This document shows, piece by piece, positions 3,766-16,359 of a stretch of DNA of 16,595 nucleotides; the stretch's first letter is position 1, and each line of letters opens with the position of its first letter. Source of the stretch: a virus. Both the position numbers and the translations under genes were made by a program. A model generated the notes under the pieces. The model saw only the letters and a program-made list of their open reading frames with translations. It searched no databases and had not been told where the DNA came from. The stretch lies in the UHGV virus genome UHGV-0309045; one strand, written 5' to 3'.

Positions 3766-3774
3766 TTTTTCTCC

Positions 3775-4674
3775 TTACTTCATTCTGAAGACGCGTTGTG
3801 TCGTTGTTGTTTTGAATTTTTCGAATAACTCAGGGTGTACTGACTGGAATAGCTTCTGGTCGAATCTGTTGCTGATCTGAGATTTCCATGTGCAGAGCGG
3901 CTTTCCGTCCAGGGTCAGGACTGAGTGCTCTTGCATGTACATCTTCAGCTTCTCTTCTGATATAGCTATTTCTTCTTCCAGTGATTTTCTGCGTGATTTC
4001 ATGTCTCGTAGATCGTTGAATAGTGCGAGTGCCTTTCCGTCAGCCTCGATACTTGTCCCGGCATCTTTCTCAAACATCAGCGATACATCGCTTACGCTGG
4101 TAGCTTCCGGCGGGTTAAGATTTTTCACTCGGTCCCAGAAAGCGATTTCTTTTTCTAAGATCGCCTGGATAGTTTCTTCATCACGCTCAACCCGATAGAT
4201 TCGGAAGTCGTCGCCACCGATAAGCACACCGAAAACGCATACCTGTTTGTTTGTAACCATCAACCCGTGCATGGCCTGGGCCGTGTAATGCACAGGAATT
4301 GCATCTGTCTGGATTTCTCCCCATTCTTTGGCCTTGAACGGACTAACTGTTTTGATCTCAATGTTCTCGCCTGACGCTGCTTCTGCATCGATCTCAGCTG
4401 CAATAAAATCGTAATCACGGTGGATATAGCGGTTTCCGCGATGAACGATTTCCATCCCTGTTTCCTCAGAAAGCAGGTCTATTACGTATGGCTCCATACG
4501 CTGGCCACGCGTGAAAACTTTCTGCTTGCTTTGGTCTACTGGTTTGACACGTGGCTGGACCTTATCCAGATAAACCTCAAGCGGGGTGCGCCATGGGCTA
4601 ATTCCAAGAATCCCTGCAACATCGCTTCCTCCGATGTATTTTGTTCTATCCATGATTCCAGCGTTCCGCATCAT
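3775..4674 (-). CDS. RecE/YqaJ-family 5'-3' exonuclease (short form, partner of RecT)
   Basis: YqaJ-type nuclease motif YIGGSDVAGILGISPWRTPLEVY. Sits immediately upstream of recT, and its stop TAA lies inside the recT RBS. Start ATG 4674 overlaps the upstream ORF stop (ATGA). Confidence 0.8.
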   Translation of the reverse strand: MMRNAGIMDRTKYIGGSDVAGILGISPWRTPLEVYLDKVQPRVKPVDQSKQKVFTRGQRMEPYVIDLLSEETGMEIVHRGNRYIHRDYDFIAAEIDAEAASGENIEIKTVSPFKAKEWGEIQTDAIPVHYTAQAMHGLMVTNKQVCVFGVLIGGDDFRIYRVERDEETIQAILEKEIAFWDRVKNLNPPEATSVSDVSLMFEKDAGTSIEADGKALALFNDLRDMKSRRKSLEEEIAISEEKLKMYMQEHSVLTLDGKPLCTWKSQISNRFDQKLFQSVHPELFEKFKTTTTQRVFRMK

Positions 4675-4972: not shown

Positions 4973-5125
4973 TCAGCCCTCCCATATCTCATTATCGTTG
5001 GCTACATCGCGAGCTTCTTTGCTGACGAAAGCCCACTTAATGCCTTCCTGTAAGGTGCGGAACTTCCAGCTCATGAATCCGCATGCAGTAACGCAGTACC
5101 AACCGTTGATGATTTTCCACTGCAT
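4973..5125 (-). CDS. Small ORF (50 aa), first gene after the pL-like promoter
   Basis: Hand-translated: MQWKIINGWYCVTACGFMSWKFRTLQEGIKWAFVSKEARDVANDNEIWEG. ATG 5125-5123 with GAGGT about 9 nt upstream; stop TGA 4975-4973 abuts the next start. Below the ORF-track length cutoff. Confidence 0.35.
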   Translation of the reverse strand: MQWKIINGWYCVTACGFMSWKFRTLQEGIKWAFVSKEARDVANDNEIWEG

Positions 5126-5144: not shown

Positions 5145-5159
5145 TTACCGTTGAGGTAA
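5145..5159. promoter_or_regulatory. Operator site TTACC GTTGA GGTAA (promoter-proximal site of the pL-like promoter)
   Basis: Perfect match to the TTACC-N5-GGTAA palindrome. An extra TTACC half-site at 5132-5136 forms a 7-bp inverted repeat TTACCTC/GAGGTAA around it. Confidence 0.6.
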
Positions 5160-5187
5160 TAATTATGCTTATTTGGTTTGGTGTCAA
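5159..5187 (-). promoter_or_regulatory. pL-like leftward early promoter
   Basis: On the minus strand: -35 TTGACA (plus coordinates 5187-5182), 17-bp spacer, -10 AATTAT (5164-5159) whose last base is the first base of the operator at 5159-5145. Confidence 0.5.
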
Positions 5188-5206
5188 TAGATATGAGTTA
5201 AAAAAA

Positions 5207-5221
5207 TTACCCGTAAGGTAA
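5207..5221. promoter_or_regulatory. Operator site TTACC CGTAA GGTAA (promoter-distal site of the pL-like promoter)
   Basis: Perfect palindrome match, 19 bp from the -35 hexamer and 62 bp centre-to-centre from the site at 5145-5159. Confidence 0.6.
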
Positions 5222-5232
5222 TCTATCTGGCA

Positions 5233-5256
5233 ATAAAAAAGCCGCCATGAGGCGGC
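5233..5256 (-). terminator. Rho-independent terminator of the repressor gene
   Basis: Hairpin GCCGCC-ATGA-GGCGGC (5241-5256) followed on the minus strand by TTTTTTATTG (5240-5231), 23 bp downstream of the repressor stop. Confidence 0.75.
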
Positions 5257-5278
5257 TTACTTACTGAAAAATATAGTT

Positions 5279-5863
5279 TTATTGTTTGCTTTTTTCGTTC
5301 TGGTTGATGACAAATTCAATGTAACTTTCGATCTTTGCTTTCTCGGTTTCGGGTAACAATGCGTAGCGCGAGCGGTCATAGTTGATAGTCGCAGGGTCGT
5401 GCGGGTGAATCAGTAGTTCATATCCGTGACGCCCGAATGCGGATGCAACATTCTCCAGGGTGGAAATGGAAACGCTGACCTCATTGTTTAACAGGCGACT
5501 GATTGTCACCTGGGCGACGCCGGATGCGCGGTGAAGTTTTCCCTGCGTTGAAAGGTCGCGGCTTTCGCTCATCCAGCGTTCCAGGTTGTGAGCCGCCAGC
5601 TGACCAATGTCGCTTGGGCCGACAGGCTGAAAACCTTCCTGAGAAAGCGAGCGATCGATATCAAGCCAGTTACGGGGTTTATTGGCGGCAGCTTCAATTT
5701 TTCGCGCAACCTGGTCGCCGATAACCTTCTTGCCAAGAGCCCAGCGGTTTACCAGATTTGCCTGAGTTCCAAGTTTTTCTGCCATCCGCGTCTGAACACC
5801 ATTGAATTCACGGTCGATCAAGTCGTTGAGATTTTGCCTGCGGACGTCCTGGATACTTTTCAT
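5279..5863 (-). CDS. CI-like prophage repressor with two HTH segments and no recognisable LexA/S24 peptidase domain
   Basis: Divergent from the Cro-like gene across an operator-rich intergenic region. HTH-like segments TRMAEKLGTQANLVNRW and ASGVAQVTISRLL. No Ala-Gly/Ser-Lys autocleavage motifs seen by eye. Confidence 0.75.
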   Translation of the reverse strand: MKSIQDVRRQNLNDLIDREFNGVQTRMAEKLGTQANLVNRWALGKKVIGDQVARKIEAAANKPRNWLDIDRSLSQEGFQPVGPSDIGQLAAHNLERWMSESRDLSTQGKLHRASGVAQVTISRLLNNEVSVSISTLENVASAFGRHGYELLIHPHDPATINYDRSRYALLPETEKAKIESYIEFVINQNEKSKQ

Positions 5864-5918
5864 TTTCTGGAAAATCGCCTCATATATGAATCAGTAGATG
5901 ATTCAATTTAAAGCAATA

Positions 5919-5981
5919 TTACCCAACAGGTAAATGCACCTCATAGGTAACTATCCTTGATTTTTGTTACCTTATGGGTGA
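5919..5981. promoter_or_regulatory. OR-like operator cluster with divergent promoter region (three sites)
   Basis: 5919-5933 TTACCCAACAGGTAA (perfect), 5936-5950 gcACCTCATAGGTAA, 5967-5981 TTACCTTATGGGTgA. Candidate rightward promoter: -35 TTGTTA 5964-5969 and -10 TATTAT 5987-5992, with the third site covering the spacer. Confidence 0.65.
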
Positions 5982-6017
5982 ATATTTATTATCTGAAATA
6001 AATATCAGGCAATAGCT

Positions 6018-6248
6018 ATGAGCGATAACGGACATTTCGATTTCAAAAAGCACTGGCTTGCACTTACTCCGGATGAGCGTGAAGCCTTCGCACAGGAAGC
6101 CGGAACGACGAGTCACTATATCCAGACTCACTTAACAGGTAAGCGCAAAATGCCAGGTAAGGTATTGATGAATGGGCTTTTTAAAGCCTGTAAAACAAGA
6201 CAATGGCTGCGCTCAAAAGCAGAACTGGCATACTTCTTCTACTCATGA
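6018..6248 (+). CDS. Cro-like small HTH regulator
   Basis: 76 aa, first rightward gene after the operator cluster, with an HTH-like segment REAFAQEAGTTSHYIQTHLTG. Followed by a terminator. Confidence 0.6.
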   Translation: MSDNGHFDFKKHWLALTPDEREAFAQEAGTTSHYIQTHLTGKRKMPGKVLMNGLFKACKTRQWLRSKAELAYFFYS

Positions 6249-6270
6249 TATCCATCCACAACCCTCTGTA

Positions 6271-6292
6271 GACCGCCATCCGGCGGTCTTTT
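6271..6292 (+). terminator. Rho-independent terminator after the Cro-like gene (tR1-like position)
   Basis: Hairpin GACCGCC-ATCC-GGCGGTC followed by TTTT. Confidence 0.7.
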
Positions 6293-6303
6293 CATATCTA
6301 TTC

Positions 6304-6318
6304 GTACCTCAAAGGTAA
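6304..6318. promoter_or_regulatory. Imperfect operator-like site gTACC TCAAA GGTAA
   Basis: 9 of 10 match to the TTACC-N5-GGTAA half-sites, between the terminator and the next gene. A TTGATC hexamer lies at 6336-6341. Confidence 0.35.
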
Positions 6319-6398
6319 TAAAAAACCAAATCTGGTTGATCTTTTTTTTGTGTCAGCACAAAATGACCGTAATCCCAATACTAATAACAGGGCTTACC

Positions 6399-6599
6399 AT
6401 GGAAATTATTACACGTATTGATGCCGCAAAGCGCGGACTTAAACGCTACTACACCGGAAAACCATGTAAGCACGGACATGACAGTGAACGCTGGGTTTAC
6501 AACGGACACTGTGTTGAGTGCACTATGGAATCAAACCGTCGCATCAGGGCAGAGATTAAGCAGATCATGATTAATTCCTCCCCACAACATTCAAGCTGA
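6399..6599 (+). CDS. Small zinc-ribbon-like protein (66 aa)
   Basis: Preferred start ATG 6399 with CAGGG RBS 6 nt upstream. Cys/His cluster KPCKHGH...NGHCVEC. Occupies the CII-like position between the Cro-like and replication genes. Confidence 0.55.
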   Translation: MEIITRIDAAKRGLKRYYTGKPCKHGHDSERWVYNGHCVECTMESNRRIRAEIKQIMINSSPQHSS

Positions 6600-6614
6600 T
6601 AGCGGAGATTAATC

Positions 6615-7406
6615 ATGAGCAGACATGCAACAGATTGGGCCTGGGAGACAGATCCAGGTAGCTCGTCATTAAAGCTCATACTGCTCTCGATGGCTGACAG
6701 AGCCGATGAATATAACCTCTGCTACCCCAGCATAGAACGCCTCGTTAAAGACACTTGCCTGAATAAAAAAACCGTGCAGGCCGGGCTTATATCGCTCATG
6801 AAAATGGGGCTTATTTCAGATACCGGAGAGAGAAAGGGTGCGACGAAAAGAGTGCGGGTTTTCTCTCTTAATATAACCAAAAACGGGAACATTAAAGGCA
6901 ACCGGGAAGGGGGTAATGAACCCGAAAACGGTAATGTTACCGAAAACGGGAATATACCCAAAAACGGGATGTTGAATGATCCCAAAAACGGGATCCAGAA
7001 CCAGTCATATAACCAGTCATTTAACCAAGAGAGGGAGAGCAGGACAAAAAGCGGGGATTCTGTGCCTCATGACCCCGGCGCAAACAACGCCGTGATGAAT
7101 AACTTTGTTCCTCCTGGTGGGCCAGGGCAATTAGGCAAATTTGTCATGCATGAACAATGGCAGCCATCAGATGACTTTCTTCGGAAAAGCTCATTGCAGG
7201 GGATCTACCTGGACAGTCTGCCAACGGCACAGGAGCTTGCAGAGTTCAGAATTTACTGGATGGCTGAGGGTAAGGCATACCATCAGGCACAGTGGGAGCA
7301 GAAGCTGGCAAGGCGGCTGCAGATTAGCAGACAGAAGCAATCAACATTACCTGATAACAACGTTCCGCACTGGAACAGCCCTGAAGCGTGGGAGGATTTC
7401 TTGTGA
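6615..7406 (+). CDS. Replication initiator: N-terminal winged-HTH domain and C-terminal DnaT-like domain (lambda O functional analogue)
   Basis: C-terminal block GKFVMHEQWQPSDDFLRK...ELAEFRIYWMAEGKAYHQAQWEQKLARRLQI resembles E. coli DnaT as recalled. The central NG-rich linker is encoded by the iterons. GGAG RBS upstream of ATG 6615. Confidence 0.8.
   Translation: MSRHATDWAWETDPGSSSLKLILLSMADRADEYNLCYPSIERLVKDTCLNKKTVQAGLISLMKMGLISDTGERKGATKRVRVFSLNITKNGNIKGNREGGNEPENGNVTENGNIPKNGMLNDPKNGIQNQSYNQSFNQERESRTKSGDSVPHDPGANNAVMNNFVPPGGPGQLGKFVMHEQWQPSDDFLRKSSLQGIYLDSLPTAQELAEFRIYWMAEGKAYHQAQWEQKLARRLQISRQKQSTLPDNNVPHWNSPEAWEDFL
6877..6993. repeat. Iteron array (putative phage ori) inside the initiator gene
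   Basis: Five copies of CC(A/G)AAAACGG(G/t)A at 6877, 6922, 6940, 6958 and 6982 (spacings 45, 18, 18, 24 bp), followed by a tandem AACCAGTCAT repeat at 6999-7008 and 7011-7020. Confidence 0.7.
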
Positions 7407-8188
7407 ACAACGTTTTTACCGCGATACAAAACCGTGACGGAGAAGCCCTTTCTCGCATGTCAGGTTATGAGCATCAGTACGTCAACAATGACAATGTGGT
7501 GAACATGTCAGCAGAGAGGCTTGTTGATGCCCTTTTCAAACAGCTGAAACAACTGTTTCCGGCGGCAGTAGTAACCAACCTGAAGACTCCAGAGCAGGAA
7601 GTTGCTGCAAAACAGCAGTGGATTGCTGCGTTTGCCGAAGGGGGGATCCGAACCCGTGAACAGGTTTCTGCTGGTATGCGCCACGCCCGCGCCAGTGAAT
7701 CTCCGTTCTGGCCGTCGCCAGGGCAATTCATCAAGTGGTGTAAAGACAGCAAGATGGTTCTTGGCGTCACCATTGACGATGTGATGGCGGAGTTTCACCG
7801 GTACAGCAAGGAAAAAAGTTTATATCCTGGTGGTCCCGAAAGATTCCCGTGGCGACATCCGGTTATGTACTGGGTCGTATGTGATACCCGCCGTGCAATG
7901 TATCAGCGCCAGCTTAGCGAGATTGAGGTTGAGAAACACGCGCGCAGGCTGCTCGATGATTGGGCGAAAAAGGTAGCTTCCGGACAGCAGATACCCGATC
8001 CGGTGATCAGCATACAGGCAAAGCCAGAACCCATGAGTACGCCTCCGGACACAGGGAGAGACGTTTACCATCCACCAGGGCGAAGTTTCGGGTGTATGCC
8101 TAACGCCGCCACATTGGGGGGAATAACACCGGCACAGTGGCTGATGGAGGAATACAGGCGGGGAAAGGCGGCAGGATTTATCAAGTAA
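7403..8188 (+). CDS. Lambda P-like replication protein (helicase loader)
   Basis: PFWPSPGQFIKWCK and surrounding blocks match lambda P as recalled (PFLPSPGQFVAWCR). GTG 7403 overlaps the initiator stop TGA 7404-7406 and has GGAGG 7 nt upstream; the ORF track starts 15 nt earlier at another GTG. Confidence 0.85.
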   Translation: MNNVFTAIQNRDGEALSRMSGYEHQYVNNDNVVNMSAERLVDALFKQLKQLFPAAVVTNLKTPEQEVAAKQQWIAAFAEGGIRTREQVSAGMRHARASESPFWPSPGQFIKWCKDSKMVLGVTIDDVMAEFHRYSKEKSLYPGGPERFPWRHPVMYWVVCDTRRAMYQRQLSEIEVEKHARRLLDDWAKKVASGQQIPDPVISIQAKPEPMSTPPDTGRDVYHPPGRSFGCMPNAATLGGITPAQWLMEEYRRGKAAGFIK

Positions 8189-8193
8189 TACCA

Positions 8194-8213
8194 GCGCGAT
8201 AGCGCATTTTTTT
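8194..8213 (+). terminator. Weak terminator-like element after the P-like gene
   Basis: 4-bp GC stem GCGC-GATA-GCGC followed by ATTTTTTT. The stem is short, so confidence is low. Confidence 0.3.
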
Positions 8214-8225
8214 ACGCCTTGATAG

Positions 8226-8302
8226 TTACCTTCTGGGTAACAAAGTATTCTAAACTCTATTGATTTCGTGTCTTATGTGGTTTTTAATTACCTCAGGGGT
8301 AA
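8226..8302 (+). promoter_or_regulatory. Operator-promoter-operator module driving the accessory operon
   Basis: Operators TTACCTTCTGGGTAA (8226-8240) and TTACCTCAGGGGTAA (8288-8302), both perfect palindrome matches. Between them -35 TTGATT 8260-8265, 17-bp spacer, -10 TTTAAT 8283-8288. The downstream operator overlaps the RBS of the 8306 gene. Confidence 0.6.
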
Positions 8303-8305
8303 ATT

Positions 8306-8650
8306 ATGAGAAAACAGATACAGGCTCTTGGTCGACTCAAAACAGGCCAGATGAACAAAACAGAATCTGCGTATTGCCAGCACCTTGAGTTGCGTAAACG
8401 TGCAGGAGAAATCGTCTGGTATCGATTTGAGGGTATCAAGCTGCGGTTAGCTGACAACACGTTCTATACGCCAGATTTTGCTGTGATGCTCGCCACCGGC
8501 GAGATGGAACTGCACGAAGTGAAAGGTTTCTGGACCGACGACGCCAGGGTGAAAACCAAAGTCGCCGCAGATCAGTATCCGTTCCGAATCATCGGGGTAA
8601 CGGTTAAACCAAAGAAAGCAGGTGGTGGCTGGAACATCGAAGAGTTCTGA
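8306..8650 (+). CDS. DUF1064-like phage protein (putative PD-(D/E)xK-type nuclease fold)
   Basis: Pattern ...AYCQHLELRKRAGEIVWYRFEGIKLRL...YTPDFAVM...ELHEVKGFWTDDARVKTKVAADQYP fits the DUF1064 spacing as I recall it. RBS AGGGG 6 nt upstream. Confidence 0.55.
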   Translation: MRKQIQALGRLKTGQMNKTESAYCQHLELRKRAGEIVWYRFEGIKLRLADNTFYTPDFAVMLATGEMELHEVKGFWTDDARVKTKVAADQYPFRIIGVTVKPKKAGGGWNIEEF

Positions 8651-8711
8651 ATCGACGATCTTTTTAGTTATCAATGTAATCAATAAGTTATGTGGATAAG
8701 CGAGGGTAAAG

Positions 8712-9245
8712 ATGGAAAGTAATATCAAAGGGTTAGTTGCCGCCGGGCATGAGATGGCTTCGGAACTGAAAGCAGAATGTGGTGCCGTTGATATGCGCAG
8801 TGTGGCAAAGCTGATCAGCGATTTGGCAACGCAACTGGAAGTGCAACTGGTGCGTGCTAATGCGATGGCCGAAGACCAGCAGAAAGCGATTGAGTCAATT
8901 AAGCAGGCTGATTCGGCTGTTAAGTTGGCACACGAGAAGTTTTCGGCGCTGGCGGCGGAGAATGCGGCAATGCATGAAGCTATTGAAGCCGTTCGGAGTG
9001 TTGCGGATAACTCCAGTGGAATTGCCGGATGGCATTTGAATGGCGATATCGCTACATGGGAAGAGATTCTTCCTGAAATTAACGATATCGAAACCCCAGC
9101 CACCGATGCTTTCCTGGCTGAAGTACGGGCGCAGGGGGTAGAGATGTTCTCAGAAAAATTCGGAGGTGGCACTCCGCTATCCAATATGGTCAAAGAGGTT
9201 GCGGCTGATTTTGCGGCGAAGCTTCGCAAAGGAGGCAACCAGTGA
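8712..9245 (+). CDS. Hypothetical helical protein (177 aa)
   Basis: GAGGG RBS 5 nt upstream of ATG 8712; stop overlaps the next start (GTGA). No recognisable motif. Confidence 0.7.
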   Translation: MESNIKGLVAAGHEMASELKAECGAVDMRSVAKLISDLATQLEVQLVRANAMAEDQQKAIESIKQADSAVKLAHEKFSALAAENAAMHEAIEAVRSVADNSSGIAGWHLNGDIATWEEILPEINDIETPATDAFLAEVRAQGVEMFSEKFGGGTPLSNMVKEVAADFAAKLRKGGNQ

Positions 9246-9865
9246 GCAAGATTGACTATCAGGCACTGCGTGAAGCGGCAGAACGCGCAATTCCGGCAAT
9301 GGAACGCCTGTTAACGTTGCCAGCCGATGATGACTTGTTAAGCGAAAAGGAGCTTAAAGATAGCGATGTTGATATTGATGCGATTAACAACTTCAAACTG
9401 CTGACCGGCCCGGAAACGGTGCTGGCACTGCTGGATGAACGGGAAAGAAACCAGCAATACATAAAACGCCGTGACCAGGAGAACGAGGATATTGCGCTTA
9501 CGGTTGGGAAGCTGCGAGTTGAGCTGGAAGCCGCAGAGAAGCGCAACGCTGAATTACAAAGCGAGAATGCATACATCCGCAACCGGTTCAAAGAACTGGA
9601 CCTGTTAATCGGGAAAAACATTCTGGTCATGCAGGCTGCGATTATCGAATGGCAGGCAACTGGCGACGCTAAGAGCGGACTGGCATGGATTTATAACACA
9701 CTGTTTGGCCCTGGCGAATTGCCGGACGAATCTGAGAAAGATGCTCAGGCCTACTTTAATCGCAAATATGCACCGATTGACGAAAAGCTTATGGAGCTTC
9801 ACAAGTGGTTTTGGGAACAAAGTGAATCCGAGCGCGCCGCTGGCATTCGCATCAAAGGAGAGTGA
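9242..9865 (+). CDS. Hypothetical coiled-coil protein (207 aa), possibly ead/Ea22-like
   Basis: GTG 9242 with GGAGG RBS 6 nt upstream. N-terminus MSKIDYQALREAAERA and a central coiled-coil segment. Family name is a tentative recollection. Confidence 0.6.
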   Translation: MSKIDYQALREAAERAIPAMERLLTLPADDDLLSEKELKDSDVDIDAINNFKLLTGPETVLALLDERERNQQYIKRRDQENEDIALTVGKLRVELEAAEKRNAELQSENAYIRNRFKELDLLIGKNILVMQAAIIEWQATGDAKSGLAWIYNTLFGPGELPDESEKDAQAYFNRKYAPIDEKLMELHKWFWEQSESERAAGIRIKGE

Positions 9866-9866
9866 T

Positions 9867-10154
9867 ATGGCAACTTTGCAGGAATTAATCGACCTGACGC
9901 CAGAACAGGAAAAAGCGTGGAATCGCCTTGTGAAGGCTGTAAAGGATTTCAGGGCAGCCGGAGGAAAGTTTTATAGCGTCCTGGACACGCTGAGCGCATA
10001 CAACGGCGAGCACGTTGCCAGCATTGATAACGATAAGGGCTACCACACTGCAAGCGTCTATATGCCTAGCATTGATGCGCCAGGGCTAACCAGTTGGGCT
10101 GATGATTGGCACGGCATCACGCTGAAAGATGGCGTTGAAGTGGATGAGGACTAA
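9867..10154 (+). CDS. Hypothetical protein (95 aa)
   Basis: ATG 9867 one nucleotide after the previous stop, with AAAGGAGAG RBS. The ORF track extends further upstream in frame, but that part overlaps the preceding gene. Confidence 0.65.
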   Translation: MATLQELIDLTPEQEKAWNRLVKAVKDFRAAGGKFYSVLDTLSAYNGEHVASIDNDKGYHTASVYMPSIDAPGLTSWADDWHGITLKDGVEVDED

Positions 10155-10157
10155 CAC

Positions 10158-10517
10158 ATGACCACTATTACCAATAAGAAACAGTATCCCAGCGAGCAAT
10201 ATCTTAATGAGCTGATCACCAACATAGAGTTTGCTGCAAGGGCACCAGTTGAAGTCGTGAGAGCGATGGCAGCAGAGCTACAGAAGCGGCGCGAAGCTGA
10301 TAGTGCAGAACCTGTAAGCCAGGCTTACAAGTTGAACGCGCTGGATGGCAACTCTCCGGTAACTCCGGATGGTTGGGTTATGGTTCCTAAACAGGTAACG
10401 CCGGAAATCAGCAACGCGATAAACGTTGTGGGTCAACGCTGTACATGCGGAAATTGCTCTCAGCGGTTGTGGGATTTATTACTCGACGCCACACAGCAAG
10501 GAGTTAACCGTGGCTAA
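10158..10517 (+). CDS. Hypothetical protein (119 aa)
   Basis: ATG 10158, 3 nt after the previous stop. C-terminal CTCGNC motif. Confidence 0.65.
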   Translation: MTTITNKKQYPSEQYLNELITNIEFAARAPVEVVRAMAAELQKRREADSAEPVSQAYKLNALDGNSPVTPDGWVMVPKQVTPEISNAINVVGQRCTCGNCSQRLWDLLLDATQQGVNRG

Positions 10518-10791
10518 CCTGCAACTTGCCGTTAAAGGTGAATACTTCGATGCCATGATTCGCGGAGAGAAAACGGAAGAGTATCGCCTGTGTAATGACT
10601 ACTGGAATAAGCGAATTATGTTCCGGGAGTATGACCGCCTGATTATCACAAAGGGATATCCGAAGCGCGACGACTCCAGCCGCAGAATTAACGTCCAGTA
10701 TGACGGATATGAAATCAAGACAATCACACATCCCCACTTCGGTGATAAACCGGTAAAGGTGTTCGCGATAAAGGTAAATATTGATGGCTAA
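10510..10791 (+). CDS. ASCH/DUF3850-like small protein (94 aa)
   Basis: GTG 10510 with AAGGAG 6 nt upstream, overlapping the previous gene by 8 nt. LQLAVKGEYFDAMIRGEKTEEYR resembles the ASCH-like DUF3850 N-terminus as recalled. Confidence 0.5.
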   Translation: MANLQLAVKGEYFDAMIRGEKTEEYRLCNDYWNKRIMFREYDRLIITKGYPKRDDSSRRINVQYDGYEIKTITHPHFGDKPVKVFAIKVNIDG

Positions 10792-11122
10792 ATCAGCAGC
10801 AGAGCGCAAAGCCGCTCAGAGAGCCAGACAAGCTGCATCTGGTGTGTGTAAGCTGGAAATTGTGCTTGATGCTCAGGAAATTGAAATGCTGGCGCGGAAC
10901 TGCGCCGCCCGGCGCCCTAGTCGCGATCCCTATGAAATGGCCGAGTACATCGCGCTGCTGATCCGCCAGGATGATGCACGTGTGCGCGGGCGTATAAAAT
11001 CGATCAGCAGAAAACTTTGCGGTAAGTGCGGCGAGAGAGTTCCCGTTAATTCATGCCCGTGTAATGGTGACTCGCAATGCTGGGTGACTAAAGGCTGGCA
11101 TGAAACGAAATTAATAGTGTGA
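10784..11122 (+). CDS. Basic Cys-rich zinc-ribbon protein (113 aa); candidate regulator, last gene before the terminase operon
   Basis: ATG 10784 overlaps the previous stop. Basic N-terminus MAKSAAERKAAQRARQAA and C-terminal CGKCGERVPVNSCPCNGDSQC cluster. Stop TGA 11120-11122 lies inside the 12-bp palindrome. Confidence 0.6.
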   Translation: MAKSAAERKAAQRARQAASGVCKLEIVLDAQEIEMLARNCAARRPSRDPYEMAEYIALLIRQDDARVRGRIKSISRKLCGKCGERVPVNSCPCNGDSQCWVTKGWHETKLIV

Positions 11123-11130
11123 CATGTCAC
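11119..11130. repeat. Perfect 12-bp palindrome GTGACATGTCAC (14-bp TGTGACATGTCACG shared with 13383-13396)
   Basis: Read directly from the sequence. Overlaps the stop of the 10784 gene and precedes the terminator at 11172. Confidence 0.85.
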
Positions 11131-11171
11131 GAGTAGATTATGCATGATGAATTTGATGGGTTTTGAATACT

Positions 11172-11198
11172 GCCGCCAACTATGGCGGCTTTATTTTG
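11172..11198 (+). terminator. Rho-independent terminator ending the accessory operon
   Basis: Hairpin GCCGCC-AACTAT-GGCGGC followed by TTTATTTTG. Confidence 0.75.
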
Positions 11199-11201
11199 CA
11201 T

Positions 11202-11233
11202 GGTACTATTACCACAACGGTAACTATTACCAC
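11202..11233 (+). repeat. Tandem direct repeat GGTA(A)CTATTACCAC x2 with 18-bp period, just upstream of the terminase small subunit
   Basis: ACTATTACCAC at 11205-11215 and 11223-11233. Each unit carries the operator half-sites in everted order (GGTAA-N3-TTACC). No sigma70 consensus promoter is evident, so this may be an activator-dependent late promoter. Confidence 0.5.
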
Positions 11234-11240
11234 GGTGGTT

Positions 11241-11837
11241 ATGATGCCTGCTGAACCTAAAACCTATAAACGCAAATCAACGCAATTTAAGCCACTAACA
11301 GCAATGCAGGAGGCTTATTGCCAGTCATACATCAAAACGCCTGAAAACCAGACTCAGGCAGCGATTAACGCAGGATTCTCCCCAAATACAGCGGCAGTTA
11401 AAGCCAGTGTCATGATGCGCGATGAACGCATTCAAAAACGGATTGCCGAGCTGATGGAGGAGCGCAACAAACGAATGCGCGTCAGTGCTGATTACGTTCT
11501 CATGCGCCTGGTGGAGATCGACCAGATGGACGTGATCGACATCCTCAACGACGATGGGAGCCTTAAGCCAATCCGCGAGTGGCCGAAAATCTGGCGCACT
11601 ACGCTTAGCGGCTTTGATCTGTCATCGACCATCATGAACATGAACGAGGATTCGATAGAGACAATCCTCAAAAAAATTAAATGGCCTGACAAGGTGAAGA
11701 ACCTCGAGCTTATCGGTAAGCACGTCGACGTCAACGCGTTCAAAGAGCGCCTGGATGTTAATGTGAATGTGACAATTGCTGATCGCATAGCGGCAGCCAG
11801 GAAGCGACTCAAAGAACGTCAGGATGGTAATCAGTGA
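11241..11837 (+). CDS. Terminase small subunit (Terminase_2-like)
   Basis: LTAMQEAYCQSYIKTPENQTQAAINAGFSPNTAAVKASVMM matches the small-terminase HTH signature. Start placed at ATG 11241 because the ORF-track start at 11163 spans the upstream terminator. Confidence 0.8.
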   Translation: MMPAEPKTYKRKSTQFKPLTAMQEAYCQSYIKTPENQTQAAINAGFSPNTAAVKASVMMRDERIQKRIAELMEERNKRMRVSADYVLMRLVEIDQMDVIDILNDDGSLKPIREWPKIWRTTLSGFDLSSTIMNMNEDSIETILKKIKWPDKVKNLELIGKHVDVNAFKERLDVNVNVTIADRIAAARKRLKERQDGNQ

Positions 11838-13309
11838 CAGATGCAGTGTTATCTCCTGAAGAGCAGTTAATCGAAGATATTGCAGGGTTCACTCACGATC
11901 CGCTTGGCTATGCCCTCTATGCGTTCCCGTGGGGGGAAGAGGGGACTGAACTGGCACATGCCACCGGCCCACGTCAGTGGCAGGCTGATGCGTTCCGAGA
12001 GATACGTGATCACCTGCAGAATCCAGAGACGCGCTATCAGCCGCTTATGCTGGCACGCGCTTCTGGTCACGGTATTGGTAAATCCGCATTCATCTCAATG
12101 CTGATCAACTGGGGCATGTCCACTTGCGAGGATTGTAAGGTCGTGGTGACCGCCAACACCGACAACCAGCTACGAACGAAGACTTGGCCGGAAATTATCA
12201 AGTGGTCGAACCTTGCTATCACGAAAGACTGGTTTACCTGTACCGCTACCGCGATGTACAGCAATGACCCTGGGCACGACAAGCGGTGGCGAGCTGACGC
12301 AATCCCCTGGTCTGAGCACAACACTGAGGCATTCGCCGGATTACACAATGAGCGCAAACGCATCATCGTGGTATTCGATGAAGCGTCGAACATTGCGGAT
12401 CTGGTGTGGGAAGTTGCCGAGGGTGCGCTAACGGACGAAGACACTGAGATTATCTGGGTGGCGTTCGGAAACCCGACGCGTAATACCGGACGTTTCCGTG
12501 AATGTTTCCGCAAGTATAAACACCGCTGGAAAACTGCGCAGATTGACAGTCGGACGGTGGAAGGTACCAACAAACAGCAGTTGCAGAAATGGGTTGATGA
12601 CTACGGGGAAGACAGCGACTTCGTTAAAATCCGTGTGCGTGGCATATTCCCTGATGCATCTGAATTGCAGTTTATCCCTACCGGTCTTACTGACGAGGCA
12701 ATAAAACGGGTGGTAACCGCTGCGCAGGTTGCACATGCTCCGGTGATAATCGGCGTTGACCCGGCATACTCCGGCGTTGATGACGCTGTGATATACCTGC
12801 GGCAGGGGCTACACAGTAAGGTGCTGTGGACTGGAAACAAGACTACCGACGATCTGATTATGGCGAAGCGTATCGCTGACTTTGAAGACCAGTATCAGGC
12901 TGACGCGGTGTTCATCGACTTTGGTTACGGAACCGGTTTGAAGTCAATCGGTGACGGCTGGGGTCGTACATGGCAACTTGTTCCGTTCGGTGGCGCGTCT
13001 ACTGACCCGCAGATGCTCAACAAGCGTGGGGAGATGTTCAACTCATGCAAGACATGGCTGAGGCTTGGCGGCATGCTGGATGACCATGAAACAGCGGACG
13101 ACCTGTCGGCGGCAGAGTACAAAGTTCGAGTGGACGGTAAAATCGTTATCGAACCGAAGGAAGATATCAAAGAGCGGCTTGGGCGTTCTCCTGGTAAAGG
13201 CGATGCGCTACTGCTGACGTTTGCGTTCCCTGTGTCGAAGCGTCTGCGAATTCCCGGTCAGCAGAACCAGCAAGGCAAGGCCATCACAGATTACGATCCC
13301 TATGCTTAA
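11834..13309 (+). CDS. Terminase large subunit (ATPase plus nuclease)
   Basis: Walker A ARASGHGIGKS, Walker B-like IIVVFDEAS, nuclease-domain block VIIGVDPAYSGVDDAVI. GTG 11834 overlaps the small-subunit stop (GTGA). Confidence 0.9.
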   Translation: MTDAVLSPEEQLIEDIAGFTHDPLGYALYAFPWGEEGTELAHATGPRQWQADAFREIRDHLQNPETRYQPLMLARASGHGIGKSAFISMLINWGMSTCEDCKVVVTANTDNQLRTKTWPEIIKWSNLAITKDWFTCTATAMYSNDPGHDKRWRADAIPWSEHNTEAFAGLHNERKRIIVVFDEASNIADLVWEVAEGALTDEDTEIIWVAFGNPTRNTGRFRECFRKYKHRWKTAQIDSRTVEGTNKQQLQKWVDDYGEDSDFVKIRVRGIFPDASELQFIPTGLTDEAIKRVVTAAQVAHAPVIIGVDPAYSGVDDAVIYLRQGLHSKVLWTGNKTTDDLIMAKRIADFEDQYQADAVFIDFGYGTGLKSIGDGWGRTWQLVPFGGASTDPQMLNKRGEMFNSCKTWLRLGGMLDDHETADDLSAAEYKVRVDGKIVIEPKEDIKERLGRSPGKGDALLLTFAFPVSKRLRIPGQQNQQGKAITDYDPYA

Positions 13310-13350
13310 TCCGCTGGTGGGGATAATGTCGTTGATATCCTCTGGTGAGG

Positions 13351-13379
13351 ATAAAACAAAGCCAGCTCATCGGCTGGCT
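13351..13379 (-). terminator. Terminator hairpin between the convergent terminase large subunit and 118-aa genes (mainly minus-strand)
   Basis: Stem AGCCAGC-TCATCG-GCTGGCT (13360-13379). Minus strand has TTGTTTTAT after the stem; plus strand has only GTTTG. Confidence 0.5.
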
Positions 13380-13383
13380 GTTT

Positions 13384-13395
13384 GTGACATGTCAC
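13384..13395. repeat. Second copy of the palindrome GTGACATGTCAC
   Basis: Identical 14-mer TGTGACATGTCACG at 13383-13396, lying between the stop of the 118-aa gene at 13400 and the terminator hairpin. Confidence 0.85.
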
Positions 13396-13399
13396 GGTG

Positions 13400-13756
13400 T
13401 TATTGCTCGCTTAACTTCTGCTTCAGCAAGTAACCTTCGAGCATCCAGATTTTGTTTACAGCATTCTGCCGGGCAATCTTCCGACCAATTTCTGCATCAA
13501 AATTTTCCGGACTTGCACAGGCACTCTCTCCGGTGACGGTGAAGCCATTCTTCAGTACCAATACGCAGAAAGTCAGGAGGTCTGTAGATTTATGCGCTGT
13601 CCATGAATCGCCAACGCCCATATTGGCAGCACGAATGCCGTCATAAGCAGTAAAGAAATGCTCTTCAAGAATGATGCTTTCGATATATTGAGGCGTAACT
13701 CGCGGAGCGGTTTTGCCTTTCTCAACGATTTCTTTTTCGATTTGCTGGTCGTTCAT
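13400..13756 (-). CDS. Hypothetical protein (118 aa), reverse-oriented cargo gene inside the late region
   Basis: ATG 13756-13754 with AAGGTGAG RBS. Opposite strand to the flanking terminase and portal genes. No family recognised. Confidence 0.7.
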   Translation of the reverse strand: MNDQQIEKEIVEKGKTAPRVTPQYIESIILEEHFFTAYDGIRAANMGVGDSWTAHKSTDLLTFCVLVLKNGFTVTGESACASPENFDAEIGRKIARQNAVNKIWMLEGYLLKQKLSEQ

Positions 13757-13767
13757 AATCTCACCTT

Positions 13768-13791
13768 AAAAAAATGCCCGGCGAACCGGGC
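13768..13791 (-). terminator. Rho-independent terminator immediately upstream of the 118-aa gene RBS
   Basis: On the minus strand: GCCCGG-TTCG-CCGGGC followed by ATTTTTTT (plus coordinates 13776-13791 stem, 13768-13774 A-tract). Confidence 0.65.
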
Positions 13792-13869
13792 GAACTGGAA
13801 GCAATGAGTTATGCCTTCCGTGGCTGTACGGGTTTACAGCATGAAGTCATCGCAATGGCGTCCTGCTGT

Positions 13870-13911
13870 AAAAAGGGCGGTGATAGTCCTTCAAGGGAAA
13901 CCATCACCGCC
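13870..13911 (-). terminator. Rho-independent terminator downstream of the tRNA
   Basis: 9-bp stem GGCGGTGAT/ATCACCGCC (13876-13884 and 13903-13911) with an 18-nt loop, followed on the minus strand by CTTTTTAC. Confidence 0.6.
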
Positions 13912-13954
13912 AAGCCCCTGGAACTTCTGGCATCACGGTCCTTAGGCGTGATTC

Positions 13955-14031
13955 TGGTGTGGCATGCAGGATTCTAACCTGCGACCAACCGCTTAGAAGG
14001 CGGTTGCTCTGTCCAACTGAGCTAATGCCAC
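13955..14031 (-). tRNA. tRNA-Arg (anticodon UCU), argU-like, with encoded CCA
   Basis: Minus-strand sequence GTGGCATTAGCTCAGTTGGACAGAGCAACCGCCTTCTAAGCGGTTGGTCGCAGGTTAGAATCCTGCATGCCACACCA folds by hand into a cloverleaf: 7-bp acceptor stem, 4-bp D stem, 5-bp anticodon stem with loop CTTCTAA, 5-bp T stem, discriminator A, CCA. Close to E. coli argU as recalled. T-loop reads TTAGAAT rather than TTCGAAT. Confidence 0.9.
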
Positions 14032-14353
14032 AACGCTGAGAGCACTTAGCCTGTTAAGGCGCCACACTTTGTCGCGGCTCCATAAATGCTCTCATCGTTG
14101 TACCCTCGTCTCTTCCGAGGCGTCACACCGAATCGCCGGGATGGTGAATCCCCGTGCGCGGAATAAAACCGCTCGACTTGCACATTCCGGCTACCTGGTT
14201 CGTTTGCCCGAGCAAGGTAGGGTGCCCCTTAAACGTATCCAGACCGCTATCGTCGCATGTGCCATACGCCGTACTGCTCAAAATAAAAGCTCACTCCACC
14301 TGTTCAATTTAACGACAAGCCAGTCAGGTTAGTAACCGGAATGAACTTTTTTG

Positions 14354-14390
14354 TTACCCGAAGGGTAATAATTCGCGCGTTAAATGTCAA
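14354..14390 (-). promoter_or_regulatory. Operator TTACC CGAAG GGTAA (14354-14368) with an adjacent minus-strand -35 TTGACA (14390-14385); candidate repressor-controlled leftward promoter for the tRNA unit
   Basis: Perfect palindrome match and a perfect -35 hexamer on the minus strand 16 bp away. No convincing -10, so direction and function are inferred. Confidence 0.4.
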
Positions 14391-14458
14391 CTGCCTACGA
14401 TAAATAAATCATATGTGGTTAAATTGGTAATAATTTAATTGCGTACGGAGTCATTGAT

Positions 14459-14665
14459 ATGTGCATGGGTAGCTCACCATCAGTGCCTGCAACACCAGAA
14501 GTTCAGGCAGCACCACAGGAGCAGGATTCCGCCGTTGTTGATGCCCGAGACGAAGAAACTCGTCGCCGTCGCGCTGCTGCTGGTCGTAGTTCTACGCTGC
14601 TTACCGGTTCTCAGGGCGACACATCAACCGCTAATACCAGCGGTAAAACGCTGCTTGGTCAGTAA
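14459..14665 (+). CDS. Small low-complexity ORF (68 aa) immediately upstream of the portal gene
   Basis: GGAG RBS 8 nt upstream of ATG 14459. Shares the 12-nt translation-initiation sequence CGGAGTCATTGA with the portal gene. Ala/Ser/Thr/Arg-rich; coding status uncertain. Confidence 0.45.
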   Translation: MCMGSSPSVPATPEVQAAPQEQDSAVVDARDEETRRRRAAAGRSSTLLTGSQGDTSTANTSGKTLLGQ

Positions 14666-14679
14666 CCGGAGTCATTGAA

Positions 14680-16359
14680 ATGGCGGAAACAACTAAAGAG
14701 CGATTGAACAAACAGTTCGCACAACTTGAAAGCGAGCGTCAGTCGTTCGAGCCGCACTGGCGCGAGTTGAGTGATTACATCAACCCGCGTGGTTCCCGCT
14801 TTCTGACTTCTGAGGTCAACCGTAACGATCGACGCAATACACGCATTATTGATTCGACCGGGACTATGGCGGCGCGCACTCTCGCCAGCGGCATGATGTC
14901 AGGCATCACAAGCCCCGCGCGTCCGTGGTTTCGCCTGGCTACGCCAGATCCTGAAATGATGGATTATGGCCCTGTTAAGTTGTGGCTTGAGGCGGTGCAG
15001 AACCGCATGAACGATATGTTCAATAAGTCGAATCTCTACCAGTCTCTTCCGCAGTTATACGGAAGCCTCGGCACATACAGCACTGGTGCAATGGCGGTGC
15101 TGGAGGATGACGAGGACATCATTCGCACAATGCCATTCCCGATAGGCAGTTACTACCTGGCTAACTCACCTCGTGGCAGTGTGGACACCTGTTTTCGCAA
15201 GTTCTCTATGACTGTTCGTCAGCTTGTTCAGGAGTTCGGGCTAAATAACGTCAGCGAATCCGTAAAAAGCATGTGGGAAAGCGGCACCTACGAGAAGTGG
15301 ATTGACGTGATGCATTCGGTTTACCCGAACATTGACCGCGATACATCGAAGCTGGATAGCAAGAACAAGCCATTCAAATCGGTTTATTACGAGGTTGGTG
15401 GCGATAACGACAAGTTGTTGCGTGAGTCCGGATTTGATGAGTTTCCAATTATGGCTCCGCGCTGGGAAGTTAATGGCGAAGATGTTTATGGATCATCATG
15501 CCCGGGTATGCTGGCGCTTGGACCTGTTAAGGCATTGCAGCTTCTCCAGAAGCGCAAGTCGCAGTTGATTGATAAAGCCACCAATCCGCCGATGGTTGCT
15601 CCGACTTCCCTCAAGAATCAGCGCGCCTCCCTTCTTCCTGGCGACATCACGTATATCGATCAGATTACTGGTCAGGATGGTTTCAGGCCTGCTTATCTGG
15701 TTAACCCCAGTACAGCAGATCTGGTAGCAGACATTCAGGACACTCGTCAAATCATTAACAGCGCCTACTTTGTCGATCTGTTCATGATGTTGCAGAACAT
15801 CAATACCCGCTCGATGCCTGTTGAAGCGGTGATCGAAATGAAAGAAGAAAAACTTCTGATGTTGGGGCCGGTTCTGGAGCGTCTGAACGACGAATGTCTT
15901 AACCCTCTCATTGACCGCGCTTTCTCGATGATGGTGCGTAAAAACATGCTGCCGCCACCGCCTGACGCGATGGAAGGTATGCCCCTGAAGGTCGAATACA
16001 TTTCCGTCATGGCTCAGGCGCAGAAGTCTATCGGCCTGTCCAGTCTGGCGTCCACGGTTAACTTCATTGGTCAACTTGCGCAAGCGAAACCAGAAGCTCT
16101 CGACAAACTCAACGTTGATCAGGCGATCGATGCATTCGCTGATATGTCCGGAGTGTCTCCAACCGTCATTGTTCCGCAGGAACAGGTTGAGCAGGCTCGC
16201 CAGCAACGGGCACAGCAGCAACAGCAGCAACAAATGATGGCGATGGGGATGGCGGCGGCACAGGGTGCCAAGACGCTAAGCGAAGCTAAAACTTCGGATC
16301 CGAGTGTTTTGTCAGCTATGGCGAATGCAGTTAGTGGTCAGGGTGGGCAATCACAATGA
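14680..16359 (+). CDS. Portal protein (T7 gp8-like head-to-tail connector family)
   Basis: 559 aa. Overall pattern and the Gln/Ala/Met-rich C-terminal tail (QQRAQQQQQQQMMAMGMAAAQGA) resemble T7 gp8 as recalled. GGAG RBS 8 nt upstream of ATG 14680. Confidence 0.88.
   Translation: MAETTKERLNKQFAQLESERQSFEPHWRELSDYINPRGSRFLTSEVNRNDRRNTRIIDSTGTMAARTLASGMMSGITSPARPWFRLATPDPEMMDYGPVKLWLEAVQNRMNDMFNKSNLYQSLPQLYGSLGTYSTGAMAVLEDDEDIIRTMPFPIGSYYLANSPRGSVDTCFRKFSMTVRQLVQEFGLNNVSESVKSMWESGTYEKWIDVMHSVYPNIDRDTSKLDSKNKPFKSVYYEVGGDNDKLLRESGFDEFPIMAPRWEVNGEDVYGSSCPGMLALGPVKALQLLQKRKSQLIDKATNPPMVAPTSLKNQRASLLPGDITYIDQITGQDGFRPAYLVNPSTADLVADIQDTRQIINSAYFVDLFMMLQNINTRSMPVEAVIEMKEEKLLMLGPVLERLNDECLNPLIDRAFSMMVRKNMLPPPPDAMEGMPLKVEYISVMAQAQKSIGLSSLASTVNFIGQLAQAKPEALDKLNVDQAIDAFADMSGVSPTVIVPQEQVEQARQQRAQQQQQQQMMAMGMAAAQGAKTLSEAKTSDPSVLSAMANAVSGQGGQSQ

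Follow-up and report, generated by a model that had tools for sequence, protein, structure and literature searches.

Phage P1 and mycobacteriophage L5 each rely on one immunity repressor (C1 and gp71, respectively) that acts at dispersed operators, with no single early switch plus cascade. The operators of both phages are asymmetric, and those of L5 are orientation-dependent and lie within transcribed regions. In the study of phage SPC32H, the SOS response reportedly relieves LexA repression at the antirepressor gene, after which Ant strips the repressor, Rep, from DNA. SPC32H Rep is a tetramer on palindromic DNA and is released by a tetrameric Ant (PMC9638917; PMC9986798), and an unusual "trans" arrangement of its DNA-binding domains has been reported. 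In the Rep tetramer, the middle dimerisation domains form two pairs that lie about 100 Å apart, and the way in which Rep represses is said to await detailed characterisation (PMC9986798). For vB_EcoP_ZX5, no free phage was found upon overexpression of the repressor, and the mRNAs of endolysin and holin fell by over 99.9% (PMC9782041).

Operators have been annotated in the epsilon15 record (AY150271.2), in which the motif ATTACC-N5-GGTAAT is labelled "protein_bind, repressor, lysogeny" at seven scattered sites that may be predictions. They lie upstream of terS, of gp3/portal and of the tailspike gene; another three flank the repressor gene on its pL side, and one more precedes the operon that follows the replication genes. 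The Rep-operator system is therefore already known, as the same sites are annotated in epsilon15. Here, we analyse a stretch of 16,595 nucleotides (UHGV virus genome UHGV-0309045; hereafter, the window), which is an E. coli prophage of the phiV10/epsilon15 type (Uetakevirus) located beside guaA; a search of E. coli found matches covering at least 80% of the window in 81 complete genomes. The phiV10 record is 97% identical to it and contains no annotated operator. We propose, with a probability of roughly 0.85, that a palindrome recurring in the window represents putative operators of Rep, the lysogeny repressor of this prophage.

Results

An exact search of the window found seven copies of TTACC-N5-GGTAA, a perfect palindrome, whereas 200 dinucleotide-preserving shuffles gave a mean of 0.00 and a maximum of 0 perfect matches. 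When up to two mismatches were allowed, 18 matches were found in the window against 4.09 expected. The non-coding DNA, which makes up only 11.4% of the window, contains all seven perfect and all three one-mismatch sites, one of which (11227) touches the terS start codon. Six of the eight two-mismatch matches fall within coding sequence; the remaining two are the operator at 5936 and a match at 10384, in a stretch scored as intergenic, which is probably due to chance. The window thus has 11 credible sites, seven of them perfect (Table 1). Given that shuffles produced no perfect match, that none was found in the 105 kb of host chromosome scanned, and that all perfect sites lie in non-coding DNA, the recurrence is real and not a chance effect. 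The original prediction, which suggested the host scan, had already claimed that the recurrence exceeds chance and that the sites lie outside coding sequence, and both claims hold, the second for all perfect and one-mismatch sites. Its nine sites are all present at the positions it gave, including six perfect copies, but it overlooked a seventh perfect site at 11209-11223 and the one-mismatch site at 11227-11241, which immediately precede the small terminase gene.

Table 1. Predicted regulatory features and associated genes in the window; operators are putative, and strand is given where assigned.
Feature	Position	Strand	Description
Leftward early operon, driven by pL	4973-5125		exonuclease/RecT genes and onward
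pL-proximal operator	5145..5159		perfect, TTACCGTTGAGGTAA; spans about -7 to +8
pL	5159..5187	-	TTGACA, 17 nt, AATTAT; 10/12 consensus matches
pL-distal operator	5207..5221		perfect; 62 bp from proximal, centre near -62
rep, prophage repressor gene	5279..5863	-	194 aa
Operator, rep/cro divergent region	5919..5933		perfect; abuts conserved TAATAT -10 of leftward rep promoter
Middle operator, rep/cro region	5936..5950		2 mismatches, GCACC..GGTAA
pR, candidate 1	candidates span 5957..5992	+	TTGATT (5957-5962) with GAATAT/AATATT
pR, candidate 2	candidates span 5957..5992	+	TTGTTA (5964-5969), 17 nt, TATTAT (5987-5992)
Operator overlapping rightward promoter pR	5967..5981		1 mismatch, TTACC..GGTGA; between -35 and -10
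Cro-like small regulator	6018..6248	+	76 aa; phrog_35 "transcriptional repressor", E 5.6e-13
Operator	6304..6318		1 mismatch, GTACC..GGTAA; just 3' of cro terminator (6270-6289)
Promoter-like element	6336-6364		TTGATC, 17 nt, CAAAAT; conserved, precedes replication genes, 17 nt past operator 6304
Distal operator, DUF1064 operon promoter	8226..8240		perfect; preceded by terminator-like hairpin with T run
DUF1064 operon promoter	8260..8288	+	TTGATT, 17 nt, TTTAAT; operon start 8306
Proximal operator, DUF1064 operon promoter	8288..8302		perfect; 62 bp from 8226; over start site
Operator	11209..11223		perfect; between terminator 11172-11189 and terS
Operator	11227..11241		1 mismatch; 18 bp from 11209 site; overlaps terS ribosome-binding site and start codon
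Operator	14354..14368		perfect; about 90 bp upstream of gp3-like/portal operon (14459)
Lone GGTAA half-site	14426..14430		exactly 62 bp downstream of GGTAA of operator 14354

The original prediction had singled out Rep as the obvious candidate for binding the sites, and this protein is homologous along its full length to SPC32H Rep (PDB 5D50; E 3.5e-42, residues 1-190 against chain residues 2-197). By homology, DNA binding is predicted to reside in the N-terminal domain, dimerisation in an HTH_3-like middle domain, and tetramerisation and Ant binding in the C-terminal domain, roles described for Rep domains in PMC9986798. An alignment of six Reps showed that the N-terminal domain retains an invariant NLVNRW segment, and the vB_EcoP_ZX5 repressor is 99.5% identical to the Rep of the window. 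Pfam matched only HTH families in Rep, with HTH_3 at residues 106-147, and found no S24 peptidase (self-cleavage) domain. The closest complete prophage encodes, in a part that the window does not include, a homologue 88% identical to SPC32H Ant, with a perfect LexA box, CTGTATATTTATACAG, upstream of its gene. Homology and this LexA box support a non-cleavable Rep that would be inactivated by a small LexA-controlled antirepressor instead of by self-cleavage. Since Rep has no peptidase domain and the Reps of this family are inactivated by an antirepressor, induction is unlikely to be lambda-like.

The claim that all sites lie beside promoter-like hexamers could be confirmed in part. A strict sigma-70 scan of the window called seven promoter-like sites against 11.3 in shuffles and supported pL and pR but none of the others, so these were taken from conservation; the hexamers at 6336-6364 and 8260-8288, for instance, are conserved and become visible only in a comparison between phages. 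The latter promoter was read directly from the sequence and was not called by the strict consensus scan. Operators overlap the core promoter at both pL, the -35 of which is conserved in an alignment of six phages, and pR, where TTGATTTTT is invariant in the same number of phages. Our reading of the alignment assigns a leftward rep promoter next to operator 5919, which would probably serve rep autoregulation, and the middle operator of this region is perfect in epsilon15, SPC32H and BUCT711. A Pfam search with the Cro-like protein gave no match; this protein may bind the same operators as Rep. At operator 8288, the ribosome-binding site falls within the spacer and right half, with the ATG 3 nt further on, and transcription of the 8306 operon is predicted to start near 8295. 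No convincing sigma-70 promoter was found overlapping the terS or portal operators.

RefSeq starts terS at position 11187 of the window, which would place the 11209 site within the gene. Alignment with epsilon15 and Tyrion puts the start at 11241/11244, 3' of the terminator at 11172-11189, and this is predicted to be the true start, the RefSeq one being too early, inside the terminator and across the operator. Site 14354, which had been tied to a tRNA unit, most likely belongs to the portal operon instead, because the conserved block lies downstream of the site, towards the portal genes. The half-site at 14426..14430 sits in a block that is invariant across six phages and may be a degenerate proximal operator.

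Despite a Rep identity of only about 43%, the motif occurs at equivalent intergenic positions in six phages with Escherichia, Salmonella, Enterobacter and Klebsiella hosts, which contain eight to 11 perfect and four to eight one-mismatch sites per genome of roughly 40 kb. Half-sites are invariant at syntenic positions in the phages compared, while spacers and flanks drift. Most of the annotated epsilon15 sites are syntenic with sites in the window; for instance, the terS operator 11209 corresponds to the annotated site at 12-27 and the portal operator 14354 to that at 2931-2947. Beyond the window, further sites precede the tailspike and antirepressor genes as well as int, and both phiV10 and epsilon15 have an additional one ahead of the lysis genes.

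At two promoters, pL and the DUF1064 promoter, operators form exact 62-bp pairs, and these were the only full 62-bp partners when all window sites were checked. The portal site and, in related phages, also the int-upstream site have a lone half-site as their 62-bp partner, and no such partner was found for the terS, rep/cro, 6304 or tailspike sites. We scanned viral contigs for pairs, allowing spacings of 45-75 bp, and found a spacing of 62 bp in 95 unique pairs and of 63 bp in 14, with at most five pairs at any other spacing; these pairs are motif-selected and mutually related, so the 62-bp peak reflects conservation within one lineage and not independent replication. A fixed layout (distal operator, 19 nt, TTGAnn, 17 nt, nnnnAT) is shared by 107 unique oriented pairs, in which the final T of nnnnAT doubles as the T that opens the proximal operator. 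The architecture of promoter 8260..8288 thus recurs in 107 related sequences, all distinct, with identities in the inter-operator DNA down to 36%. A Rep homologue is present in the retrieved piece of 83 of 120 viral loci. Some viral contigs with the paired pattern are unrelated elements that carry 22-35 bp arrays or, in one case, 12 copies in 4 kb; the retrieved pieces of these elements (8.3 kb in the latter case) contain no Rep homologue, and they were left out as evidence. The bare paired pattern is not unique to the Uetakevirus Rep-operator family. We found no description of 62-bp operator pairing, nor an explicit operator consensus, in the accessible literature.

Discussion

The proposal that one repressor silences several transcription units beyond an OL/OR pair is supported by the epsilon15 annotation, the homology with SPC32H Rep, the effect of ZX5 repressor overexpression, the synteny of the sites and their overlap with promoters. 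Judging from work on the SPC32H homologue, the Rep tetramer would read each TTACC half-site through its N-terminal helix-turn-helix domains. It would thereby control at least six places in the window, namely, pL (5145, 5207), the divergent rep/cro promoters (5919, 5936, 5967), the promoter that lies past the cro terminator and leads into the replication genes (6304), the DUF1064 operon promoter (8226, 8288), the entry point of the terminase genes (11209, 11227) and the portal/head operon (14354). At pL and the DUF1064 promoter, a proximal operator over -7 to +8 would block RNA polymerase directly, and the distal operator, 62 bp or about six helical turns upstream, would present the same face of the DNA, so that one tetramer might hold both operators and clamp the promoter. 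Between the terS terminator and start codon, Rep would more likely act as a roadblock or mask a weak promoter. Upon induction, SOS would remove LexA from the antirepressor gene and Ant would then strip Rep from DNA, with no self-cleavage.

That a Rep tetramer clamps each early promoter through a 62-bp pair centred near -62 and +1 and directly gates at least six units, with no need for a late-gene cascade, is a tentative proposal to which we give somewhat less than even odds. If true, the gated units would include the operons for packaging and for the head within the window, as well as the lysis genes of related phages, and the 62-bp phasing would mirror, on the side of the DNA, the unusual "trans" arrangement described for the DNA-binding domains of SPC32H Rep. 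As a counterpoint, a 62-bp loop is very tight, and with about 100 Å between the pairs of middle domains, bridging would require strong DNA bending.

A different possibility is that the sites serve mainly the Cro-like protein or another phage regulator, such as the AlpA-like (2445-2693) or PerC-like (2036-2287) proteins, and thus lytic-phase timing, not lysogenic silencing. Cro and the repressor share operators in lambdoid phages, the 76-aa protein fits a PHROG family of small transcriptional repressors, and sites before the late operons could turn down early or middle genes. However, the sites cover the cores of pL and pR, which are necessarily shut in the lysogen, where Rep is the expressed regulator, the epsilon15 record labels them as repressor sites, and a 99.5%-identical Rep overexpressed alone shuts the lysis genes. 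Moreover, shared use by Cro is compatible with control by Rep and would not replace it, and we consider it unlikely that the sites are bound mainly by the Cro-like protein or another regulator. The Cro-like protein could share the sites, and occupancy in the lysogen may not be by Rep alone.

The remaining readings dispense with a repressor altogether, and we regard both as very improbable. Predicted hairpins at the sites are of low and variable stability (-2.0 to -9.2 kcal/mol) and have no T runs after them, and distal sites upstream of a -35 are not transcribed from their own promoter. Thus, even if every site can form a 5-9 bp stem, sites 8288 and 11227 overlap ribosome-binding sites and several sites adjoin terminators, we rejected the idea that the palindromes work as RNA hairpins (terminators, processing sites or translational operators), given that conservation falls on the sequence of the two half-sites and on the strict 62-bp phasing rather than on the strength of the stem. 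A bipartite palindrome with a fixed spacer also looks like a restriction-modification target, and an MT-A70 adenine methylase is encoded at 1393-2043, so that the motif could be recognised by a DNA methyltransferase or a restriction system of the phage or the host. Such targets are spread over coding and non-coding DNA, whereas the perfect sites here all lie between genes, in syntenic places linked to promoters and at constant distances from the -35 and -10, and the host sample has no perfect site; this reading was rejected as well.

Control by Rep would leave the general picture of the Uetakevirus family unchanged, but it has consequences for annotation, as phiV10-type prophages, which are common in E. 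coli, share the operator set with epsilon15, and both the phiV10 record and RefSeq leave the operators unmarked. It would also offer a clear case of a lysogeny repressor directly controlling many operons, and the fixed 62-bp pairing provides a testable prediction on how the tetrameric Rep of the SPC32H structure engages DNA.

Among known systems, the P1 C1 repressor and the L5 gp71 "stoperators" resemble the window in that many genome-wide operators of one repressor silence separate operons directly. In contrast to theirs, the window sites are palindromic and mostly overlap promoters, and there is no detectable protein relationship, as only SPC32H Rep was matched among solved structures. The epsilon15 gp38 sites share with the window the motif ATTACC-N5-GGTAAT, the genus, the gene order and the location of sites upstream of terS and of gp3/portal, in the pL region and at the operon that follows the replication genes. 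They differ in that epsilon15 Rep is about 43% identical to that of the window and that epsilon15 has on its pL side a third site, another 76 bp outward, which the window lacks; the epsilon15 record also omits three rep-gp39 sites and the proximal partner at 35969, all of which were found by motif scan. The SPC32H Rep/Ant switch (PDB 5D50, 5D4Z) has in common full-length Rep homology, the operator motif and layout in the genome, and an Ant homologue with a LexA box, here seen only in the closest complete prophage. Rep homology, operators positioned as in epsilon15 and a LexA-controlled antirepressor place the window in the Uetakevirus Rep-operator family, with binding as a prediction. As in the case of lambda CI, the repressor and cro genes are divergent, with sites 5919, 5936 and 5967 between 5863 and 6018, a second set of operators occupies the leftward early promoter, and binding is likely cooperative via oligomerisation. 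Unlike lambda CI, Rep has no S24 self-cleavage domain, its putative operators extend beyond OL/OR to middle and late operons (6304, 8226/8288, 11209/11227, 14354), and the 62-bp pairs flank one promoter instead of lying side by side.

Operators and their placement

The window is a phiV10/epsilon15 group prophage (genus Uetakevirus) inserted next to guaA in E. coli, with a nucleotide identity of 99.8% to the prophage of strain FDAARGOS_1257 and of about 97% to phage phiV10. An exact search found seven perfect copies of the palindrome TTACC-N5-GGTAA in it (see table), whereas 200 dinucleotide-preserving shuffles produced no copy at all, and allowing up to two mismatches gave 18 matches against 4.09 expected. 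The original prediction, which held that these repressor sites were not due to chance, listed six perfect and three imperfect sites with the correct coordinates and mismatch counts throughout, and overlooked one perfect and one one-mismatch site near terS (the small terminase gene). Its proposal that the sites lie outside coding sequence also holds: once the start of terS is corrected, the RefSeq gene map of the closest genome leaves 11.4% of the window non-coding, and this fraction contains every perfect (seven) and every one-mismatch (three) site. Two-mismatch matches lie inside genes in six of eight cases, as chance hits do, and the 105 kb of host chromosome that were sampled contain no perfect site.

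Genes, operators and other sequence elements in window order
Feature	Position	Strand	Remarks
Integrase gene			first in order
Leftward early operon			methylase, PerC-like, AlpA-like, RecT, exonuclease
Perfect operator	5145-5159		start is last base of pL -10
Perfect operator	5207		62 bp from previous
Repressor gene	5279-5863	minus	
Perfect operator	5919		abuts conserved TAATAT
Operator	5967		between -35 and -10 of rightward promoter (consensus scan)
Cro-like gene	6018-6248		
Operator	6304		after cro terminator, before conserved TTGATC, 17 nt, CAAAAT element
Replication genes			after Cro-like gene
CCCAAAAACGGGA repeats	6869-6994		inside DnaT-like replication gene
Perfect operator	8226		
TTGATT	8260	plus	
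TATGTGGTT	8274-8282	plus	
TTTAAT	8283	plus	
Perfect operator	8288		
DUF1064 operon	8306		
GTGACATGTCAC	11119-11130		right after last early gene
Terminator hairpin	11172-11189		
Perfect operator	11209-11223		overlooked in original prediction
One-mismatch operator	11227-11241		overlooked in original prediction
Terminase genes			after DUF1064 operon
GTGACATGTCAC	13384-13395		right after large terminase gene
Gp49-like gene			after terminase genes
tRNA-Arg(tct)	13955-14031	minus	
Perfect operator	14354-14368		about 90 bp before portal operon
TATGTGGTT	14412-14420	plus	
16-nt direct repeat CGGAGTCATTGATATG / CGGAGTCATTGAAATG	14446-14461 and 14667-14682		translation start regions, gp3-like gene and portal gene
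Portal operon			last in order

Three sites occupy the intergenic region between the repressor and Cro-like genes, and in our reading of the alignment, the TAATAT next to 5919 would be the -10 element of the promoter that drives the repressor gene. The two terS sites are flanked by a terminator on one side and by the start of the gene on the other, and they overlap its ribosome-binding site; because no promoter of good quality was found there, Rep (the product of 5279-5863) may repress terS by acting as a roadblock. The RefSeq start of terS, at 11187, falls within the terminator hairpin and makes the gene span a Rep operator, and alignment with epsilon15 and Tyrion (MPAEPK...; region 11163-11246) points to 11241 or 11244 as the true start. 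Upstream of the portal operon, a lone GGTAA half-site is found exactly 62 bp downstream of the operator's GGTAA, in a block that is invariant in all six phages compared. The operator itself, perfect in the window, has one mismatch (TTACTCGAAGGGTAA; L002 16378) in the FDAARGOS_1257 prophage, which is otherwise 99.8% identical.

Other elements recur in this prophage. Exact copies of TATGTGGTT, always on the plus strand and 46-58 bp downstream of a Rep operator, precede the DUF1064 and portal operons as well as the tailspike gene (for the latter, at 18440-18448 of L006, the full prophage of the window type). The blocks around them (for example, CATATGTGGTTAAATTGGTAATAATTTAATT) are nearly invariant in the six phages, and TATGTGGTT may serve middle/late genes as a promoter element or as the target of an activator. 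Two copies of GTGACATGTCAC, a perfect 12-bp palindrome, are present in the window (0.04 expected), and a third stands behind the last structural gene of L006 (15222). Copies mark the matching operon ends in all six phages and are absent from the host sample, and the palindrome may be bound by a second regulator or have a link to termination. Finally, the five or six copies of a repeat of about 18-24 nt with the core CCCAAAAACGGGA, spaced by 18, 24 and 45 bp, look like origin iterons within a replication gene, by analogy with lambda O.

Paired operators at two promoters

The leftward early promoter, pL, reads TTGACA, 17 nt, AATTAT on the minus strand (consensus scan), and a plus-strand copy of its layout, with two operators and both hexamers, precedes the gene at 8306. 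Each of the six phages has the operator pair at both promoters, with a spacing of 62 bp everywhere but at one Klebsiella pair (63 bp). A search of viral contigs for perfect sites in pairs, 45-75 bp apart, yielded 120 loci, and in 83 of these the fetched piece encodes a Rep homologue. When each sequence is counted once, 95 pairs are spaced by 62 bp, 14 by 63 bp and at most five by any other distance, a peak that reflects conservation within a lineage and not independent origins, as these loci are kin and motif-selected. The 107 unique oriented pairs have a fixed layout of distal operator, 19 nt, TTGAnn, 17 nt and nnnnAT, and the proximal operator begins on the final T of this last hexamer; the 47 nt that separate the operators have a pairwise identity of only 36-98% (median 60%). 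This layout thus places the proximal operator at about -7 to +8 and centres the distal one near -62. Such fixed pairing around promoters may be undescribed, and represents a modest refinement that is open to test.

At 8306, the ATG lies 3 nt past the proximal operator, as it does in 52 of 107 related sequences, which implies a leader only about 11 nt long; the ribosome-binding site lies within the spacer and right half of this operator (TTACCTCAGGGGTAA; 8288-8308). Elsewhere, an unrelated large phage (a 121-kb IMG/VR contig with a PhoH gene nearby) carries 12 perfect sites in 4 kb (600-4200), mostly between small minus-strand genes, and no Rep homologue was found in the fetched piece. Given that other contigs also hold arrays of sites spaced by 22-35 bp, the bare motif is in use in other elements as well.

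The motif in related phages

Seven features of the epsilon15 GenBank record (AY150271.2) are labelled "protein_bind, repressor, lysogeny", and all of them read ATTACC-N5-GGTAAT. One each lies upstream of terS, gp3/portal and the tailspike gene, three fall in the interval from gp37 to the repressor gene, and the seventh precedes the gene that follows the replication module. They are syntenic with the window sites except for the tailspike site, whose counterpart is beyond the window, and an additional site on the pL side with no equivalent in the window. A motif scan revealed further, unmarked perfect sites in epsilon15 (two between the repressor gene and gp39, another ahead of the lysis genes, and a partner site at 35969), and the phiV10 record annotates terminators and no operators. 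In the closest complete prophage and five complete phage genomes (phiV10, epsilon15, SPC32H, Enterobacter Tyrion and Klebsiella BUCT711), we counted 8-11 perfect and 4-8 one-mismatch sites per genome. Alignments of seven intergenic regions show invariant half-sites with variable 5-nt spacers and flanks; among 48 unique perfect sites, TTACC is preceded by A in 62% and the central spacer base is A or T in 96%.

A one-mismatch site, TTACCTTAAAGGTAT (L002 1891-1905), lies 57 bp upstream of the integrase start, some 110 bp before the first base of the window. Phages phiV10, epsilon15, SPC32H and Tyrion keep this site and, 61 bp downstream of it, a TTACC half-site, so int may also be under Rep control.

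Other roles for the palindromes can be considered. They could function as RNA hairpins, but the predicted hairpins are weak, uneven and without T runs. Targets of restriction or methylation would occur away from promoter-linked intergenic positions too, whereas the perfect sites are limited to these. The Cro-like protein likely uses the same sites in part, which would not replace Rep as their binder.

The repressor and its antirepressor

The original prediction singled out the product of 5279-5863 as the candidate binder, and homology agrees with this choice: the 194-aa protein aligns over its full length with SPC32H Rep (PDB 5D50, E 3.5e-42). A Pfam search of it gave helix-turn-helix families only and no S24 peptidase. 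According to secondary sources, SPC32H Rep consists of an N-terminal DNA-binding, a middle dimerisation and a C-terminal tetramerisation domain; its tetramer binds palindromic DNA through paired DNA-binding domains from different dimers and is released by tetrameric Ant, the antirepressor (PMC9638917; PMC9986798). The repressor of vB_EcoP_ZX5 is 99.5% identical to the window protein, and its overexpression abolished free phage and lowered transcript levels of endolysin by 99.99% and of holin by 99.97% (PMC9782041). Rep of the phiV10 type is only 43-45% identical to Rep of the Salmonella and Klebsiella types; the N-terminal domains are better conserved (53-54%), and the NLVNRW segment is invariant.

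The antirepressor in this family is under SOS control (PMC7380047). In the closest complete prophage, outside the window, an 85-aa homologue of Ant (within L006 18060-18408) shares 88% identity with the SPC32H protein, as against 43% for Rep, and its gene is closely preceded by a perfect LexA box (18339-18354). A Rep operator (18394-18408) accompanies this box between the divergent ant and tailspike genes.

Comparison with known systems

On all features tested, the window system belongs to the epsilon15/SPC32H Rep-operator family. Since the type phage of the genus has a public annotation of the motif and its dispersed sites, and the repressor family has solved structures, the motif and the dispersed placement of operators are already known. 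P1 C1 and L5 gp71 share dispersed operators with this system, although they differ from it in site symmetry and protein family, while lambda CI differs in both induction and operator distribution.
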